64,000 bases of DNA. Origin: Terriglobia bacterium. Lineage in GTDB: Bacteria; Acidobacteriota; Terriglobia; 20CM-2-55-15. The notes beneath the pieces are model-generated. The model had not been told where the DNA came from and did no database searches. It saw nothing but the letters and a program-made list of their open reading frames with translations. Shown here piece after piece: positions 2,441 through 25,473 of this stretch; the first letter of the stretch is position 1; every line of letters begins with the position of its first letter. Location of the stretch: NCBI GenBank assembly GCA_963664115.2, contig CAXWPJ010000009.1, forward strand, positions 928,001 to 992,000. The letters are read 5' to 3'. The translations under genes and the position numbers were made by a program.

Positions 2441-2497
2441 ATCAACATCGTCCTGAACTGGTTTGAAGAACTGAAGGAACGGGTGCCGGTTCCCTGA
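2441..2497 (+). pseudogene. 3' stub of Ser/Thr kinase (INIVLNWFEELKERVPVP*)
   Basis: Matches the C-terminus of the intact kinase at 17169-19820 (IRLVLNWFEELKQRVPLP*). Confidence 0.85.
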
Positions 2498-2506
2498 TTT
2501 TGAGGG

Positions 2507-2542
2507 TCAATTCCTGATATATCCTCTTCCCAGAGGTTGAGA
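2507..2542 (+). repeat. Dispersed quasi-palindromic site, degenerate copy A
   Basis: TCAATTCCTGATAT-ATCCTC-TTCCCAGAGGTTGAGA, 9 bp after the kinase stub, same spacing as other copies. Confidence 0.7.
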
Positions 2543-4988: not shown

Positions 4989-6116
4989 ATGAGCGCTACA
5001 CCCGAACTCTCTCGAGAAGCTTTCATTGAGGACCTGATTGCCAACAATTTCACGACGTATTTTGTCGCGACGCACTGGAAGTCCGCTAACAGCAATCCGG
5101 CATTTCGTTTCACACCAAGCCCCGTCAGCATCGCCGTGCCCTATTCCTGGTCGTATAGCGATGCCAGGCAACGGCTGATGAGCCTGAGTTCACTTCTGAC
5201 TACGGAAGAGGCCGAACGGCGAAACATTAATTTTGTAAATCCAGCGCTTAAGGACTTCATGCCCGCCGCTGCATTACCGACGTTGCGCGGCGGTATTCAG
5301 TTGTTGTTACCCGATGAACAGGCGTACTCGCATCGGCACACCGCGAATGCATTCCGCCTGGTTTTCGAGGCATCCGAGTCCGGCGCGTACACCAACGTCG
5401 GAGGTAATCGGCTACCAATGTCGATGGGTGACTTGATACTGACACCCAACTGGACCTGGCACGACCATCACAATGAAGGTGATGCCCGCGTCATCTGGTA
5501 CGACGGTCTCGATGTGCCCCTGGCGCATTGGATTGGAGGCGTGTTTGCTGAAGAGATGCTTGACGTGACAGGCGAGAAGCACCAGGCAATCACGCACGAG
5601 GCGAATGCCGTAACGGACAATTTCGGCCCGGGCATGATCCATCGCAAGAAAATGTCCCCGGACAATATTCCGGCATCCAACAATCCCCTGATTTATTATC
5701 CCTACAGCAAGGCGCGGGCCTCGCTCGCCGACCTGGCTGCGCAAGGTGCCGGGGATCCGCACGAGGGCGTAGTCGTCGAGTACGTGAACCCGGTGACCGG
5801 TGGCCCGACTTTCCCCACCATGGGGACATCGCTACGACTGATTAAGGAACAGTCAACTGTCGAGGCAATGCACAGAACGGAAAACATATTATTCATTACG
5901 ATGGAAGGGTCGGTGACCTTTCATCTTCCCGACGGTGAAAAGTTCACAACCGAACCGCATGACGTCACCGCAATGCCATCGTGGGTGCCGTACAGCATCA
6001 CCAACAAAAGCGATACACCGGCCGTGCTGTTTTCACAGACTGACCGCCCGGTATTTGAAGCGCTAGGGTTTTATCGGGAACAGAAAGTCCGAGTCACATT
6101 TACAGAGTTGAGCTAA
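4989..6116 (+). CDS. Bicupin ring-cleavage dioxygenase (gentisate 1,2-dioxygenase-like)
   Basis: ERR, HRHT, GDLILTPNWTWHDH, DGLDVP, YVNPVTGGP, D.P..EALG motifs. Confidence 0.88.
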   Translation: MSATPELSREAFIEDLIANNFTTYFVATHWKSANSNPAFRFTPSPVSIAVPYSWSYSDARQRLMSLSSLLTTEEAERRNINFVNPALKDFMPAAALPTLRGGIQLLLPDEQAYSHRHTANAFRLVFEASESGAYTNVGGNRLPMSMGDLILTPNWTWHDHHNEGDARVIWYDGLDVPLAHWIGGVFAEEMLDVTGEKHQAITHEANAVTDNFGPGMIHRKKMSPDNIPASNNPLIYYPYSKARASLADLAAQGAGDPHEGVVVEYVNPVTGGPTFPTMGTSLRLIKEQSTVEAMHRTENILFITMEGSVTFHLPDGEKFTTEPHDVTAMPSWVPYSITNKSDTPAVLFSQTDRPVFEALGFYREQKVRVTFTELS

Positions 6117-6150
6117 ATCAGGCGTAATCAGGAGGCCGCCGGTGAGATCT

Positions 6151-6270
6151 TGGATTCTCCAGAAGGTCACCGGCAACGGCGGCACGGTGGACTTCATGAT
6201 GCAGGAGACCGCTAAATGCCCTAACTGCAAGCAAACACTGACTGATAAGACCCTGATCGAGCCAAAGTGA
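6151..6270 (+). pseudogene. 3' remnant of a small CxxC protein
   Basis: WILQKVTGNGGTVDFMMQETAKCPNCKQTLTDKTLIEPK*; stop codon abuts repeat site B. Confidence 0.4.
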
Positions 6271-6310
6271 TTCTCAACGTCCGACAAAATCGTTTATCAG
6301 GACCTGAGAA
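6271..6310 (-). repeat. Dispersed quasi-palindromic site, copy B (inverted)
   Basis: TTCTCAACGTCCGACAA-AATCGT-TTATCAGGACCTGAGAA is close to the reverse complement of the consensus. Confidence 0.85.
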
Positions 6311-6399
6311 TTTGAGTTGAGCTTCTGATTGCTTACAAACCCCTCCCTTAGTATTCTTTACCGAGTTTTTCACGGTTCAACTAGCAACACACTATAACG

Positions 6400-6477
6400 A
6401 TGGAATCCGGCACCAAACTCGGCCACTACGAGATCCTCTCTCCGCTCGGCAAAGGCGGTATGGGGAAAGTGTGGAAG
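6400..6477 (+). pseudogene. 5' stub of Ser/Thr kinase (MESGTKLGHYEILSPLGKGGMGKVWK)
   Basis: Near-identical to the N-terminus of the kinase at 17169; similarity ends after 26 codons. Confidence 0.88.
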
Positions 6478-6790
6478 ACCAATCAATCCGGGCAACGTTG
6501 GAGGTGTCTGGTCCGACGGTGGGTTACGGCGGCTTTGCGCCGTATGCTAGGAGCATTACGGAAGCGTGCGGTCCGGGAGAGACGTAACGGCAACGATAAT
6601 CGAGCTGCGTTGACAGATACTCTAGATGGTTCTATTTTGAGGCAATCCACTCGATCCCGATGACTGATAGGGTAAATTTTGTGGAGATCTACGTCGGCAT
6701 CTCTTCGGGAGCATGGAACGATGGACTGGGACACGGCTCCTGGTTCTAAGGCCAGTCTCGTAGTTGGAACCTTTTTTCAAATAGGGGGCT

Positions 6791-7201
6791 ATGATGAAGA
6801 AGCTGGGCACATTTTTCGCCTTGGTCGCGGGCATGGCGATCATCGCCGGGCCGCTATTCGCACATCACGGTACGGGAATTTCGTACGAATTGGACGCGCC
6901 ACTCCTCACGATGAAGGGCACAGTCACGGAATTTGCGTGGCGTAATCCTCATGTGACAATTTTTCTCGACGTAACGGAGGACAACGGCGATGTCGTTAGT
7001 TGGGCATTCGAACACAGCAACATAGCCAATCTAGCCAGGCAGGGGTATCACAGGAATACGTTGCAGGCTGGCCAAGAAGTCACCGTCGTTGGCCATCCTT
7101 CGAAATCAGGCGCGCCCGTTGGGCTTACGGTAGATGTCATACTTGCCGACGGGAGCAAAATACTCCAGAGGAGACAGGCGGGCGCTCCTCCTAGAAACTA
7201 A
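6791..7201 (+). CDS. DUF6152-like small exported protein (copy 2)
   Basis: PLFA|HHG, WRNPH. Confidence 0.88.
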   Translation: MMKKLGTFFALVAGMAIIAGPLFAHHGTGISYELDAPLLTMKGTVTEFAWRNPHVTIFLDVTEDNGDVVSWAFEHSNIANLARQGYHRNTLQAGQEVTVVGHPSKSGAPVGLTVDVILADGSKILQRRQAGAPPRN

Positions 7202-7243
7202 AAATTGAGGACGCGACGCAGAGAGTTGCGTAGGAGGATCAGA

Positions 7244-8107
7244 ATGCCGAATCTTTTCGTGGGCGTGCTGCTGTGGGTACTTTTTCTTCCGTCGCCAGCG
7301 TTCTCCGGCCACCCGGAGGGACAAGAACCGGGAACCGAGGGAGCTGCGAGTCAATTCGATCCACGTGATTTTTCGGGAATCTATATGCGGCGGGGCGGAG
7401 ACCGTGGCCTTAGCGCGGATATTCCTCCCATGACGCCGGAAGGTGAGGCAAGGCTCGACGACAACAGACCTGCCCGCGGAATCCCATTAGGCGACCCGCT
7501 GAACGGGGAACATCCCGGCCGCGCGAGGGCCGTTGTACCTGCGCTTTCAAACGATCCCATGATGGAGTGTAATCCGCAGGGTTTTCCTCGCCTCCTTCTC
7601 GATCCGGAGCTCGTCGAATTCGCTCACCTTGAGAGGCGGCTTCTGCAAATCTTCAACTGGGAAAACAGGATGCGCGAAGTCTGGCTGGACGGGCGAGAAG
7701 TGCCTTCGGGTGAGAACCTTGATAACCTGGGGCTGGCGTGGTACGGACACTCGGTTGGCGAATGGCAGGGAGACACCCTGGTTGTCCACACGGTCGGTCT
7801 TGATGATAGAGCGTGGGTCGATATCTTCGGTTTTCCGAAGAGCTCCGAAGCACGATTTGAAGAGCGCTACAGGAGGATCGACGCCGATACGATAGAGCTA
7901 CAAATTACGATGTATGACCCGAAGTACTACACAGAGCCTTGGGTGTCCGACACGAAGATTTTCGAGCGGCAGCCTGCCGAGAGTTACACGTTCTTTGGGT
8001 GGTCGGGCTTGTTCTCCGGGATTATAGACGGAATCTGCGCGCCGATGAACGAGGTCGATGACTTCAACTCCAGAGTTCGAGATCCTGCGGGCCTGGGTGC
8101 CCAGTGA
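7244..8107 (+). CDS. DUF6152-partner family protein (copy 2)
   Basis: RBS AGGAGG; FDPRDFSG, CNPQGFPR, WYGHSVGEWQGDTLVV, ICAP. Confidence 0.88.
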   Translation: MPNLFVGVLLWVLFLPSPAFSGHPEGQEPGTEGAASQFDPRDFSGIYMRRGGDRGLSADIPPMTPEGEARLDDNRPARGIPLGDPLNGEHPGRARAVVPALSNDPMMECNPQGFPRLLLDPELVEFAHLERRLLQIFNWENRMREVWLDGREVPSGENLDNLGLAWYGHSVGEWQGDTLVVHTVGLDDRAWVDIFGFPKSSEARFEERYRRIDADTIELQITMYDPKYYTEPWVSDTKIFERQPAESYTFFGWSGLFSGIIDGICAPMNEVDDFNSRVRDPAGLGAQ

Positions 8108-8218
8108 TCGCGATAGAGACCAGAAGGGGTTGAGGAGACACGGGGAATTTCACCCCGAGTAACGGGTCGCCGGAAGCGATCCGCAAGATTGCCGACATCC
8201 GGGCCTGCCCTCCCGCGC

Positions 8219-8272
8219 AACATCGTCCTCAACTGGTTTGAAGAACTGAAGGCGCGGGTGCCGGTACCTTGA
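8219..8272 (+). pseudogene. 3' stub of Ser/Thr kinase (NIVLNWFEELKARVPVP*)
   Basis: Matches the kinase C-terminus. Confidence 0.85.
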
Positions 8273-8281
8273 TTTTCAAGG

Positions 8282-8318
8282 TCAAGTCCTGAGAAATCAT
8301 CTTGTCGGACGTTGAGAA
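8282..8318 (+). repeat. Dispersed quasi-palindromic site, copy C
   Basis: TCAAGTCCTGAGAA-ATCATC-TTGTCGGACGTTGAGAA. Confidence 0.9.
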
Positions 8319-8611
8319 TTCACATCTCTGAATAGAAACAACCGAGTCCGACAGTCATCCCTTAAAACCAACAACTTAACGGCGAGATGTTGGAGCAAGT
8401 CGCTATCGAGTGGGTCTGACGTGGATTACGGGCTGTCAGGAGTTCGCGAAGTGCCCCAGGGAGGTTATGGAGAAGACGTGGAAGGAATAGTATGACTTAA
8501 AAACCGCTTCTTAGCAAAACGGCGCTTTTGTCCGAATTATTTTGACAACGTACAGTACTCGGACACGGGGCATGTTCGGATACATTGAAATTCTGATAGC
8601 CTCTTGGAACA

Positions 8612-9626: not shown

Positions 9627-9939
9627 ATTACTAATTGATGGTGTGGCTGGAAGTCGCCACCTTCGACCACGCCATCTTACTCTTGCCAGACCGACCCGTA
9701 GGTGCGCTTCGCACCGCAAGTCTGACAAGCCCAAATCTCGGCCAGGATTAGCCTCTCATTATTGGCGAATCGGAAAACGATTCGGGCGAAAGTCAGATTA
9801 TCGTTGTTCAGAACTGTTACGAAAATATGGTGTAAGTCCCTCAGGATCAGTCCAGGCGTTTCGGGCCCTCTTCCGCAGTATCGGGAGCGCGAAACTGCTT
9901 ATTTTCATCATTCGCCGGGTGAGCCACACTCATGAAGTC

Positions 9940-9978
9940 TGGTTTGAAGAACTGACCGAACGGGTGCCGGTGCCATAG
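9940..9978 (+). pseudogene. 3' stub of Ser/Thr kinase (WFEELTERVPVP*)
   Basis: Matches the kinase C-terminus. Confidence 0.8.
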
Positions 9979-9987
9979 TTTTTGAGT

Positions 9988-10004
9988 TCAAGTCCTGTTA
10001 AATC
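9988..10004 (+). repeat. Left half of site D (split by IS1111-like element)
   Basis: TCAAGTCCTGTTAA-ATC; the matching right half resumes at 13396. Confidence 0.85.
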
Positions 10005-13395: not shown

Positions 13396-13417
13396 ATCAT
13401 CTTGTCGGACCTTGAGA
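13396..13417 (+). repeat. Right half of site D
   Basis: ATCATC-TTGTCGGACCTTGAGA. Confidence 0.85.
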
Positions 13418-13521: not shown

Positions 13522-14250
13522 ATGCCATTAGGAGAACTTCCATATGACCGACTTGAGCCTCTCGTTCGCCACTATCTTTCAACGGAGGAGGACGAATCGA
13601 CAGCCGAACTGATTCAGCGAATGCGAGCTGCCAAGAGACGTGGTTGGCTCACGCGGTCGGAACTCGAGGCAGTATGCTATTGGAAATCGCCAAGGGTAAT
13701 CGGGCATATTCGGGCGAACACGCCGGGGCAGATCCGCTCCGCCACTAGGGTCGCTCTTCGCACTCGAAGTGAACGCCTCCGACTTGAAAACCTCACCCAA
13801 CTAAAAGGCGTGTCGGTTCCCATGGCCTCAGCGGTCCTCATGCTGCTAAATCCTAAACGCTACGGTGTGATCGACATCAGAGTTTGGCAGTTGCTGCACG
13901 AATTGGGAACAATCAAACAGAACGCATCAGGTGTCGGCTTTGGGTTCAACAACTGGTACCAATATCTGATGATAATTCGATATCTCGCAAAGAAACTTAA
14001 CGTCACGGCACGGAATATCGAACGGGCACTCTTCCTGGCACACCAAGGAGAATCAACAGGGCCGGTTATACAAGTAGATCACCTGTTCGACGAGGTGAAC
14101 CACAGCCTATTGAGTCGTCGAATCTGGAACGAAAAAGAGAGGTCAAGTCCTGACAAATCATCTTCTCGGACGTTGAGATTTCATTGCCTGCTATCCCACT
14201 CCTTCTATAGACTGCCCCTAGTATTACTATGTTATGTAGAATCGAAGTAA
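13522..14250 (+). CDS. Hypothetical helix-hairpin-helix (HhH-GPD-like) protein, C-terminus probably frameshifted
   Basis: WKSPR, LKGVSVPMASAVL, YGVIDIRVW, R.IERALF; ORF runs through site F into an IS end, while another frame ends ENQQGRLYK* near 14077. Confidence 0.65.
   Translation: MPLGELPYDRLEPLVRHYLSTEEDESTAELIQRMRAAKRRGWLTRSELEAVCYWKSPRVIGHIRANTPGQIRSATRVALRTRSERLRLENLTQLKGVSVPMASAVLMLLNPKRYGVIDIRVWQLLHELGTIKQNASGVGFGFNNWYQYLMIIRYLAKKLNVTARNIERALFLAHQGESTGPVIQVDHLFDEVNHSLLSRRIWNEKERSSPDKSSSRTLRFHCLLSHSFYRLPLVLLCYVESK
14143..14178 (+). repeat. Dispersed quasi-palindromic site, copy F
   Basis: TCAAGTCCTGACAA-ATCATC-TTCTCGGACGTTGAGA. Confidence 0.9.
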
Positions 14251-17168: not shown

Positions 17169-19820
17169 ATGGAATCTGGCACCAAACTCGGCCATTACGA
17201 GATCTCAACGCTCTTGGGTAAGGGTGGAATGGGCGAAGTGTGGCGTGCCAAGGACACGAAGCTCGGGCGTGAAGTTGCTATCAAGACGCTGCCTGAAGAG
17301 TTTGCCAAAGATGCAGATCGTCTCGCACGTTTTGAACGTGAAGCTAGATTACTGGCCTCTCTAAATCATCCCCACATTGCAGCGATTCATGGTTTCGAGG
17401 AAGACAACGGCACTCCCTTTCTGGTCCTCGAACTCGTCGAAGGTGACACGCTCGCTGATCGGTTGAAACGTGGAGCCATCCCTGTAGAAGAAACTCTGAA
17501 ACTAGCCTTACAGATCGCTGAAGCCCTGGAAGCAGCACACGAGAAGGGTGTGATTCATCGTGATTTGAAACCGGCGAACATTAAAGTGACTCCCGACGGG
17601 AAAGTGAAGGTACTCGACTTTGGATTGGCAAAGGCATTCGCTGGCGACACCGATATAGACATTTCCAAGTCACCTACCCTGAGCATGCAGGCCACGCAAC
17701 AAGGAATCATTCTAGGTACTGCAGCATACATGTCACCGGAGCAGGCAAAGGGGCATAGCGTGGATAAACGCGCCGACGTGTGGGCGTTCGGATGCGTCCT
17801 GTACGAAATGCTGACGGGCCGTCGGGCGTTCGGAGGTGAAGAAGTTTCGGAAATACTTGCATCTGTACTTGCCCGAGACCCCGACTACACGAAGTTGCAG
17901 CCCAACCTCCATCCAAGACTGAGAGAGGTTCTGGAGAGGTGCCTGGAGAGGGATTTAAGGAAAAGATTCCAAGGCATCGGTGACGTGATTGTAGATATCG
18001 ATAAAGTGATTGCCAGTTCGGAAGGCGGTATCGTTTCATCCCGCGACATCGTCCCGACTTCACGATCCAAACTGGCCTGGGCTTTTGTGGCCGTTCCTTT
18101 AGTGATTGCTGGAACTCTTGCGTTTAACTTGAGCCGAGCTGTAGGTGTCTCGGCTCCGCCTGCGGTGATCCGTTCTTCGATCACCCTGTCACTTGACGAT
18201 AGTCTCAACTTGAACGGAAATCTAGCCTTCTCTCCGGACGGTAGCATGCTCGCTTTTAATCGTGTGCGCGATGGAAGCTCACAGATATGCGTCCGTGACA
18301 TGGACAATTGGGCAATCCGTTGTATCCCAGGCACAGAGGCCGCGACTCATTTTTTCTTCTCTCCAGACAGTCAGCAGATTGGTTACAGCGGAGGCGGCGC
18401 CTTAAGAGCTGTATCGGTGACTGGGGAATCGCCGATCGTACTTGCGGATTCGGCGGGATTGGGTGGAAGTTGGGGTAAAGATGGAAGCATCGTCTTCAAT
18501 TCGGGCTACAACCAGGGACTTTCTCGCATTGGAGCCGACGGGGGGCCAGTTACGGAATTGACTGTGCCGGACCCTGCGAATGACGAGCTGGGCCATTTCT
18601 ATCCTCAGTTGCTGGACGATGGGAACACGGTCATTTTTACGGTGTTTTCTCCGCTTCTGGAAAGGGCCTATGTTGCCGCACTCCGTTTGAGCGATGGGGA
18701 AATCCGGCCGTTGATTGCTAACGCTGTTTCTGGCCGCTATATTTCGAGCGGACATCTTCTGTTCGTGCGCTCGAACAACCTGATGGCCGTGCCCCTGGAC
18801 CTGTCCCGACTGGAAGTGAACGGCACACCCGTTGCGGTCGTCGATGATATGCCCCTGGATCCCGCTGAAGGAGACTCCGCGTTTGCAGTGTCTGGCGACG
18901 GTGCACTGGCCTATGTGCCGGAATCGGTGCTGAACCCGGAGCTGCAACTGGCCTGGATCGACCCTCAGGGAGACGAGGAGCTGCTTTCGGGAATCCGTGG
19001 TCCGTTTGGAAGTATCGCCTTGTCACCTGACGGTGAGAGGGTGGCGTTGACGAGGTTCCAGGCTAACCCGGATATCTGGCTCTATGAACTGGGGACCGGC
19101 AGAGGTATTCGCTTTACGTTCGGCGACGCAGGCGAAGGTAGTCCTGTGTGGATGCCGGATTCCAGCCGAATCGCGTTCTTCAGCGACCGGCCACCCTATG
19201 ATTTGTATTGGCAGCCGACGGATCGCAGCGATAGCGAGGCGGAACTGCGGTCGAGTCCTTACGACAAGGTCCCCACATCTGTTTCGCCCGACGGCACCCT
19301 GCTTGTGTTCCACGAGAATCGTGTCGACACAACCGGAGAAGACATCTGGTTGTTGCCGGTCAATGGTGACGAAGATCCACGCGTTTTTCTTCAGACCGAA
19401 TTCCACGAGTACGATGGGGTAGTGTCGCCGAACGGGGAGTGGATCGCCTACGTGTCCGACGAGTCCGGACAGGCAGAAGTTTATGTTCAGGCGTTTCCGC
19501 AGGGAGGTGACCAGCGGTCGGTTTCTAGCCAAGGAGGAGAGGAACCACGCTGGTCTCGAGACGGACGGACGCTGTATTACGTTTCTGGACAGTCGCTGAT
19601 GGCGGTGGAGGCCGAGCCGGGTCCGCCCATGAGGGTCGGCGAAGAAAGCGAATTGTTTGGAATTGAGACAGTCCGCCCAGCCAGGGATGGGACGCGCTAC
19701 GGCGTGGACGCAGAGGGACGCTTCCTGATAGTGAAATACCCGGCGGAATCTCAACCACGGGAAATCCGCCTCGTCCTGAACTGGTTTGAAGAACTGAAGC
19801 AACGAGTGCCGCTGCCTTGA
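17169..19820 (+). CDS. Hanks-type Ser/Thr protein kinase with TM segment and TolB/PD40 beta-propeller
   Basis: GKGGMG, VAIK, HRDLKPAN, DFG, YMSPE; TM near aa 302-320; repeated SPDG units. Confidence 0.95.
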   Translation: MESGTKLGHYEISTLLGKGGMGEVWRAKDTKLGREVAIKTLPEEFAKDADRLARFEREARLLASLNHPHIAAIHGFEEDNGTPFLVLELVEGDTLADRLKRGAIPVEETLKLALQIAEALEAAHEKGVIHRDLKPANIKVTPDGKVKVLDFGLAKAFAGDTDIDISKSPTLSMQATQQGIILGTAAYMSPEQAKGHSVDKRADVWAFGCVLYEMLTGRRAFGGEEVSEILASVLARDPDYTKLQPNLHPRLREVLERCLERDLRKRFQGIGDVIVDIDKVIASSEGGIVSSRDIVPTSRSKLAWAFVAVPLVIAGTLAFNLSRAVGVSAPPAVIRSSITLSLDDSLNLNGNLAFSPDGSMLAFNRVRDGSSQICVRDMDNWAIRCIPGTEAATHFFFSPDSQQIGYSGGGALRAVSVTGESPIVLADSAGLGGSWGKDGSIVFNSGYNQGLSRIGADGGPVTELTVPDPANDELGHFYPQLLDDGNTVIFTVFSPLLERAYVAALRLSDGEIRPLIANAVSGRYISSGHLLFVRSNNLMAVPLDLSRLEVNGTPVAVVDDMPLDPAEGDSAFAVSGDGALAYVPESVLNPELQLAWIDPQGDEELLSGIRGPFGSIALSPDGERVALTRFQANPDIWLYELGTGRGIRFTFGDAGEGSPVWMPDSSRIAFFSDRPPYDLYWQPTDRSDSEAELRSSPYDKVPTSVSPDGTLLVFHENRVDTTGEDIWLLPVNGDEDPRVFLQTEFHEYDGVVSPNGEWIAYVSDESGQAEVYVQAFPQGGDQRSVSSQGGEEPRWSRDGRTLYYVSGQSLMAVEAEPGPPMRVGEESELFGIETVRPARDGTRYGVDAEGRFLIVKYPAESQPREIRLVLNWFEELKQRVPLP

Positions 19821-19822
19821 TT

Positions 19823-19849
19823 TCAAATCATCTTGTCGGACGTTGAGAA
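19823..19849 (+). repeat. Site copy G (left arm deleted)
   Basis: TCAA-ATCATC-TTGTCGGACGTTGAGAA directly after the kinase stop. Confidence 0.85.
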
Positions 19850-24414: not shown

Positions 24415-24540
24415 TCCAACCTTTCGCCCGTACCGCTGTGCAGTTGGTCCTCCACGATTTCGCTAGGGGCGACGCAGGATTAATCGTGCCTTGGCACCTT
24501 GCGTTTAGGGATCAATCAAATCGGTCTGTGGCAGGTAAGA

Positions 24541-24607
24541 GAGCGCGTGCCGGTTCCCTGATTTCAAGTTCAAGGTAACGACAAATCATCTTCTCGGACC
24601 TTGAGAA
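24541..24607 (+). repeat. Kinase 3' tip (ERVPVP*) plus site copy H
   Basis: GAGCGCGTGCCGGTTCCCTGA-TTTCAAGT-TCAAGGTAACGACAA-ATCATC-TTCTCGGACCTTGAGAA. Confidence 0.85.
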
Positions 24608-25433: not shown

Positions 25434-25473
25434 TTCTCAAGTCCTGACAAATCATCTTCGCGGACATTGAGAA
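25434..25473 (+). repeat. Dispersed quasi-palindromic site, copy I
   Basis: TTCTCAAGTCCTGACAA-ATCATC-TTCGCGGACATTGAGAA. Confidence 0.9.

Follow-up and report, generated by a model that had tools for sequence, protein, structure and literature searches.

The genome under study appears to carry genome-wide arrays in which a putative 38-bp recombination site bounds mobile modules, and in which the ends of a kinase gene may act as short homology handles for capture and re-joining. From the comparisons described below, we give this reading a probability of about 0.6. The window is the whole stretch of DNA analysed, 64,000 nucleotides long, and corresponds to C9:928001-992000 of G000 (G000 is the genome under study, C-numbers are its contigs, and other G-numbers are genomes compared with it).

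A kinase-flanked cassette and its surroundings

Between two sites of the window, B and C, lies a cassette for which a preliminary description had named site B, a promoter-like segment, the first 26 codons of a kinase, a DUF6152 gene with a partner, a kinase tip of about 18 codons and site C. All of these parts are present, as are the further kinase tips that had been placed ahead of other sites. The features are:

2441..2542, + strand: kinase tip (ending at 2497) and degenerate site
6112..6270, + strand: a further type of tip, the 3' end of a small zinc-finger gene family, which stops at the R arm of site B; like ends adjoin B-class sites at other loci of G000 and G002, and longer forms occur elsewhere
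6272..6309, - strand: site B, found by the site profile, a palindrome of layout 16-6-16 that belongs to the second spacer class and turns its L arm towards the kinase promoter
6329..6357, + strand: predicted promoter-like hexamer pair with 17-nt spacing, recognized by eye, member of a 23-copy flank family
6400..6477, + strand: kinase 5' stub, codons 1-26, 58 of 78 nt identical to an intact kinase; putative homology handle
6478..8217, + strand: cargo, made up of a non-coding leader, the DUF6152 gene (6791-7201) and the partner gene (7205-8107)
8218..8272, + strand: kinase 3' tip, 18 codons including the stop, untranslated; putative homology handle
8280..8317, + strand: site C, first spacer class (ATCATC), its L arm 7 nt past the kinase stop
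9939..10004, + strand: kinase tip (ending at 9978), cut upstream by a MITE-like insert of about 120 bp, and the L arm of a site whose spacer an IS110 interrupts
13396..13417, + strand: spacer and R arm of the IS110-split site
14141..14178, + strand: site F, of the first class; the kinase promoter flank after it is broken by IS701 and IS1182
17169..19820, + strand: Ser/Thr kinase of 883 aa with a PD40 propeller, one of four copies that are intact
19827..19848, + strand: site G, of which the R arm and spacer remain and the L arm is deleted
24538..24606, + strand: short kinase tip (ending at 24561) and a site with a variant L arm
25435..25472, + strand: first-class site closing an 866-bp unit that is present on C2 too

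Sites B and C form an inverted pair, 87% complementary and with unlike spacers. Reversed-pattern controls for the site gave 0 matches against 121 real ones, indicating that the pattern does not arise by chance. The promoter-like pair at 6329 was missed by a sigma-70 scan of 6200-8500, and the promoter-like segments on the B and F sides were compared by eye alone. No Pfam family matched the partner gene, and two RNA runs (X14 and X19) hold only low-depth fragments that are uninformative on expression. At least eight DUF6152-plus-partner pairs occur between 581 and 53566 of the window, within as well as outside site-bounded modules. A group II intron fragment (Rfam RF02005, 2062-2282) lies 160 nt upstream of a kinase tip, and this piece is the only match of an Rfam scan of the window, which yielded no attC.

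The stretch from site F through the kinase to site G had been taken as the intact counterpart of the cassette. The kinase there is intact and IS701 and IS1182 do lie between it and site F, but the match is not exact. Site B, of the second class and reversed, has the promoter on the side of its L arm; site F, of the first class and forward, has it on the side of its R arm. The exact counterpart is a near-intact module at C5:155691-158490, running from a second-class (B) site through the kinase to a first-class (A) site, with its frames broken into 235 and 669 aa.

Orthologues of the cargo (DUF6152 plus partner) are 75-78% identical in G001, G002 and G004, and a partial second copy on C6, 99% identical, has the same 3' junction and differs in its tip and in the region past the site. 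The 5' junction, where stub meets cargo, recurs in G002 and G004. In G000 it is bridged by more than 60 nt in single contigs from four runs of four studies, which extend from 6408/6410 to 8229-8247. At the 3' junction the best two read contigs enter the tip by 30 nt, where the rule required 31 nt; joints with sides of 50 nt or less in read contigs were treated as repeat artefacts, and no rearrangement was observed in the reads. Because contigs of four studies bridge the 5' junction and two relatives have it in common, misassembly of the cassette is unlikely.

The 38-bp site and its two spacer classes

The site profile makes 221 calls in G000 (216 once reverse self-matches are removed), which fall into 41 clusters with a total of 543 kb. 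In 154 of 174 two-armed sites a spacer of 6 scored best, giving the layout 16-6-16, and the outer TCA/TGA and inner AA/TT are kept in G001, G002, G004, G007, G017 and G044 as well. Class A, with spacer ATCATC, accounts for 145 of the 221 calls, and class B, of the ACGACA/ACGACC type, for about 33. Orientation follows class: among neighbours no more than 8 kb apart, same-class (A-A) pairs are direct in 92 of 94 cases and mixed A-B pairs are inverted in 37 of 37, 19 with the L arms and 18 with the R arms inside. R-inside modules often measure 50-52 bp (13 modules) or 141 bp (5), and L-inside modules mostly 1.4-7 kb. A kinase start lies within 140 nt of 18 of the 24 intact B sites. Starts stand 100 nt away where the site is of class B and often 117-118 nt away where it is of class A, which would fit a 52-bp doublet whose B site has lost about 34 nt. 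Site strand stands to local skew as 98 to 58, counts in which clusters are not independent.

Segments 95-99.7% identical recur at separate loci with ends that coincide with site boundaries, the site-ended duplicates measuring 1327 bp (99.3% identical), 423 bp, 612 bp, 692 bp and 1017 bp. Cassettes range from 0.5 to 6 kb, with a median of 2.0 kb. Pairs within G000 that have one flank in common still differ in the arm on that same side, in 4 of 7 and 5 of 10 cases. Crossover within the spacer alone cannot produce such differences, and so crossovers or conversion span the whole site.

Matches to the site number 121 in G000, 83 in G002, 33 in G003, 9 in G001 and one each in G007 and G017; the other 35 of the 41 genomes compared have none, and neither 300 further genomes of the phylum nor viral contigs gave a match. 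G004 has a variant with spacer ATCCGG, and 13 metagenome contigs match the site, most of them with tip-like DNA upstream. The site is lineage-specific, found only in two genera of one family.

Several insertion sequences target the site. IS30 right ends abut a site arm in 11 of 11 cases; so does every one of the 7 ends of one IS110, and for a second IS110 the figure is 8 of 9. In both spacer classes the 2 bp that IS30 duplicates are the central ones. Eight elements combine an IS91-family transposase with a tyrosine integrase, six of the copies being identical, and in 6 of the 8 cases a site lies no more than 150 nt away; their integrases were considered as the site enzyme and rejected, as they look like passengers. 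A reverse-transcriptase-like family with three members also lies near sites.

Several further repeats accompany the arrays. The 3' ends of the small CxxC zinc-finger family adjoin the R arm of B-class sites and so mirror the kinase tips on the opposite arm, with about 20 related pieces across G000 and its relatives. Another palindromic family, also with a 6-bp spacer (CCCATAA-N6-TTATGGG type), is present in G000 (C2:322771-322800), G002, G004 and G007 and clusters in G030 (C3:308163-353241), where one copy lies just upstream of a Cre-like recombinase. Long near-identical segments join contigs (C6:1699-46165 against C11:1-81294; C2:1-14093; C5:1-11221), some of them rearranged at sites or IS; these may be strain alleles or assembly overlaps, in which case the counts are slightly inflated.

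Kinase ends as candidate homology handles

Intact kinase genes and remnants had been singled out for counting genome-wide, and the count is lopsided: G000 holds 4 intact genes against 69 kinase starts and 158 tip calls, a few of them weak, or about 150 tips. An L arm lies within 60 nt of 105 of the 158, at exactly 7 nt in 71, and none is nearby for 53. Tips also occur in relatives (103 in G002, 25 in G003, 64 in G004, 26 in G007 and 11 in G017). Upstream homology to the propeller is undetectable for 128 of 152 tips tested, the junctions of these tips being spread over the last 21 to 66 or more nt, and 5' stubs have a median length of 95 nt; empty stub-tip fusions exist as well. Remnant lengths cluster at the gene ends, contrary to simple random decay. 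Among nine intact genes, DNA identity is 77-80% at the ends against 50% in the middle. Tandem intact kinases, some with overlapping stop and start codons and no intervening site, are found in the sister genus (G017:C1:4720000-4739999; G007).

It had been suggested that a site-kinase-site unit was amplified and its interior replaced. The near-intact module on C5 and seven hollow versions speak for such a unit: 8 of 19 inverted B-A modules keep both kinase ends. Stub and tip, however, co-occur in a cassette at the level of chance (11/21 versus 38/91, p=0.47; across sites p=1.0), so one kinase need not have been hollowed once. Modules that start at a B site end in a tip in 10 of 19 cases, and A sites overall have one in 64 of 122.

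The same description had offered the kinase-terminal DNA as a recombination or targeting signal, and had asked whether the tip is conserved at the nucleotide rather than the codon level. It is not: stub tips fall into 75 distinct haplotypes among 79, and 153 of 237 differences are at third codon positions. Variants that also occur in intact genes comprise 116 synonymous and 11 non-synonymous changes, and singleton changes 51 non-synonymous and 4 synonymous. Judged by these substitutions, the tips are descendants of coding paralogues and are no longer read. Being untranslated, decaying and variable at third codon positions, they are not a fixed DNA signal; the kinase-terminal DNA does take part in recombination, as the comparison of species below indicates, and likely acts there by homology rather than as a specific sequence. 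A role as C-terminal tags was rejected, since just 5 of 128 tips are in frame with an ORF of at least 80 aa.

Two other elements are found at the tips. A MITE-like element of about 120 bp sits at one fixed tip position with a 3-bp duplication in at least six tips here and also in G004 (for example at 9815-9938 of the window and at C6:31700-31830), and a multi-copy element of at least about 60 bp, starting with CGGATAAGCG, is present at several stub or tip junctions, at 2386-2430 of the window and in about 30 other places.

Comparison of orthologous loci in relatives shows junctions that are kept and kinase ends that are exchanged. We compared 192 junction flanks with the part of the relatives' genomes that was covered and found 27 counterparts at 94% identity or more over 180 nt; three had stubs longer than 120 nt and were left unscored, seven were set aside for a differing junction or for an indel or insert within it, and 17 were scored. 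In these 17, cargo differs at 78 of 3398 positions (2.3%) and tip or stub at 104 of 870 (12.0%), with differences distributed 25/21/58 over the codon positions; the associated significance figures treat linked positions as independent. Mismatch in tip or stub climbs from 6% beside the junction to 16% at 30-40 nt, and the flank past it is replaced in 7 of the 17. Exchange therefore falls inside the kinase ends. In one cassette the tip turns into that of a quite different paralogue about 12 nt past the junction. The cargo of the window behaves alike: its stub in G002 differs at 14 positions, 10 of them third positions, behind another promoter context, and in G001, G002 and G004 it ends in a different tip of 7 codons. 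As the orthologues share the 5' junction and differ in the 3' junction, the two ends of this cassette were acquired and exchanged separately.

Microhomology between kinase and cargo measures 9, 10 and 8 nt at three junctions where another copy has the cargo with no stub; at two other 5' and five 3' junctions it was either not clearly present or could not be judged. No clean pair of empty and filled loci appeared at two isolated loci in four congeners, where synteny broke near the sites. ComEC is present in all four congeners and was not found in G000 (97% complete), MutS is present in all five genomes and Ku in one of them.

We infer that the kinase module is the founder, and that its ends recombine as interchangeable homology rather than marking one hollowed gene or a fixed signal. 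The founder would be an inverted module, site B-promoter-kinase-site A, alternating with tiny modules of 51 or 141 bp much as C and D modules do in dif arrays, and direct A-A cassettes would be fusions that have lost site B. Amplification of the kinase family, with the propeller diversifying between conserved ends, would have placed many homologous copies next to the site. Homology-anchored illegitimate recombination would then likely have joined foreign DNA to the kinase ends at microhomologies, first at one end and separately at the other, with deletion of most of the kinase. Later, homologous or homeologous crossover at any point of stub, tip or site would move the cargo, and site-specific recombination between sites of matching spacer probably does so too.

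Candidate enzymes and likeness to known systems

No recombinase gene accompanies the arrays in G000 or the relatives compared. G000 has 27 tyrosine-recombinase matches; of those compared, XerC and XerD alone have orthologues in both G002 and G003. A profile search of G000 for divergent tyrosine recombinases returned fragments only, and the genome has three serine resolvases. The recombinase at C5:52189-53154, between two B sites, is a candidate cognate enzyme that the comparisons do not support: it has no close homologue in G002 or G003, which carry 83 and 33 sites. A relative lies beside kinases in G007, but of the loci of its 55 relatives only 7 gave kinase-like hits and only 9 any site-like match (13 matches in all versus 2 in shuffles). 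The IntI gene at C9:714590 has no site within 4 kb and stands about 200 kb from the nearest clear site cluster, and none of the 12 tyrosine-recombinase matches of G003 is IntI-like. Our own split assigns about 45% to an undetected or transient tyrosine-type recombinase, about 35% to host XerC/XerD and about 20% to no recombinase.

The arrays might instead be chromosomal islands of dif modules, run by host XerC/XerD on divergent sites with the kinase ends as passive hitch-hikers. The 38-bp site is not the chromosomal dif itself: it has about 216 copies, and a separate, single canonical dif lies at C2:108118-108145, 8 kb from the skew maximum, where the polarity of GGGNAGGG flips, with counterparts in relatives. 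In line with XerC/XerD action, the 6-bp spacer between AA and TT is uniform within each class, L-inside and R-inside modules appear to alternate, the two enzymes are the conserved ones noted above, and the reversed R arm matches the XerC arm of this dif at 8/11 in consensus (mean 7.1/11) and a dif-like arm in G038 at 10/11. Neither arm, though, is XerD-like (5.1-5.3/11), the arms are 16 bp long with conserved outer TCA/TGA, and the variant R arm of G004 is not XerC-like either (4.8/11 over 8 pattern hits, some of them one site read on both strands). Most neighbours are moreover direct, and exchanges occur inside tips and across arms. We regard host-run dif modules as unlikely.

Nor do we favour an account with no dedicated recombinase, which seems improbable. 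Here the site would be an operator or a selfish palindrome, and RecA-type shuffling would act among tip-plus-site repeats of about 90 bp in IS-rich islands. Crossovers scattered over tip and site agree with it, as do the 64 tips of G004 beside another site variant, the third of the tips (53/158) that lack an L arm nearby and the fruitless search for a linked recombinase. It leaves unexplained, however, the uniform spacers within each class, the invariable inversion of mixed pairs, the fixed R-inside modules of 51 and 141 bp and the insertion of IS30 at the exact centre of both spacer classes.

That an expanded kinase family left the stubs behind as ordinary pseudogene debris, IS-truncated or misassembled, is largely refuted and very improbable: private non-synonymous and stop changes in tips, the fifth or so of junctions that adjoin repeated elements and the IS-rich islands fit it, but repeats at junction flanks are not enriched (14/64 and 29/128 versus 87/299 in controls), lengths cluster at gene ends, junctions are common to several species with one bridged in contigs of four studies, and decay cannot yield third-position-biased replacement in untranslated DNA.

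Beyond the arrays with kinase-end handles proposed here, we put forward only tentatively a new gene-capture platform, in which a lineage-specific recombinase would act on a site that is neither dif nor attC, sensor kinase ends would be universal handles, about 11% of the chromosome (543 kb) would be shuffled in two genera, and cassettes would be born by microhomology capture. To our knowledge, how integron cassettes and dif modules first gain genes is unresolved; if the platform is real, microhomology capture answers, for this system, how cassettes arise. At about 200 junctions the ends of the founder gene would survive as a fossil record, one and the same cargo being present both captured and uncaptured, and in several species, and so capture by microhomology and spread by short homology are directly testable. 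The site would define a new type of array, and its use by IS30 and two IS110 elements makes it a natural object for studies of IS targeting. The literature searched, which covers few subscription papers, held no description of the site or of kinase-end handles.

Integron arrays and CALINs consist of tandem direct cassettes with attC core ends, a stem kept by pairing, and targeting by the IS110 family. The arrays described here resemble CALINs in their tandem direct order, cassettes of 0.5-6 kb, the lack of a linked integrase and IS110-family targeting, and differ from integrons in the 38-bp site, its second, inverted class and the many cassettes with their own promoter flank. The site was rejected as an attC because its arms have no compensatory pairing (50 paired versus 54.4 expected, of 120) and no hairpin covariation. 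Attention is also drawn to attC-like left halves that end just before an L arm (C2:771597, C6:39797, C11:7910 and C11:55504), which suggest that some cargo came from integron cassettes. A transposon or MITE with 38-bp terminal inverted repeats was likewise rejected, as most neighbours are direct and the spacers of sites B and C differ, with no flanking duplication. Variable middles are also swapped by way of conserved ends in polymorphic-toxin orphan modules and antigenic-variation cassettes; here, by contrast, unrelated cargo takes the place of the middle, and the proposed handles are remnants that are untranslated and tied to a palindromic site.

Closer in architecture are the dif (pdif) arrays of Acinetobacter, in which C and D modules alternate, modules can be fused and spacers match (PMC13141974); dif-module islands on chromosomes (PMC12907356) and IS that target the module sites (PMC10132070) are described as well. 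Both systems have two-armed sites with a 6-bp spacer that bound modules, putative fusions between direct sites, matched spacers, chromosomal islands and site-targeting IS. Alternation of opposite-arm module types is shared in part, since mixed-class pairs here are all inverted but same-class pairs nearly all direct. The arms here are, however, 16 bp long and pseudo-symmetric, with none XerD-like; there are about 200 sites per chromosome, with neighbours mostly direct; the centre of the spacer is where IS insert, not a position 5 bp outside the XerC arm as in dif modules; and exchange also falls inside the flanking kinase ends. The proposed capture step, with its homology anchor and microhomology, resembles homology-facilitated illegitimate recombination (HFIR), in which a RecA homology anchor and a short microhomology join foreign DNA, a rare event in transformation experiments (PMC6382021). 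Unlike HFIR so described, capture here would be a standing, genome-wide route with more than 200 built-in anchors from one gene family.
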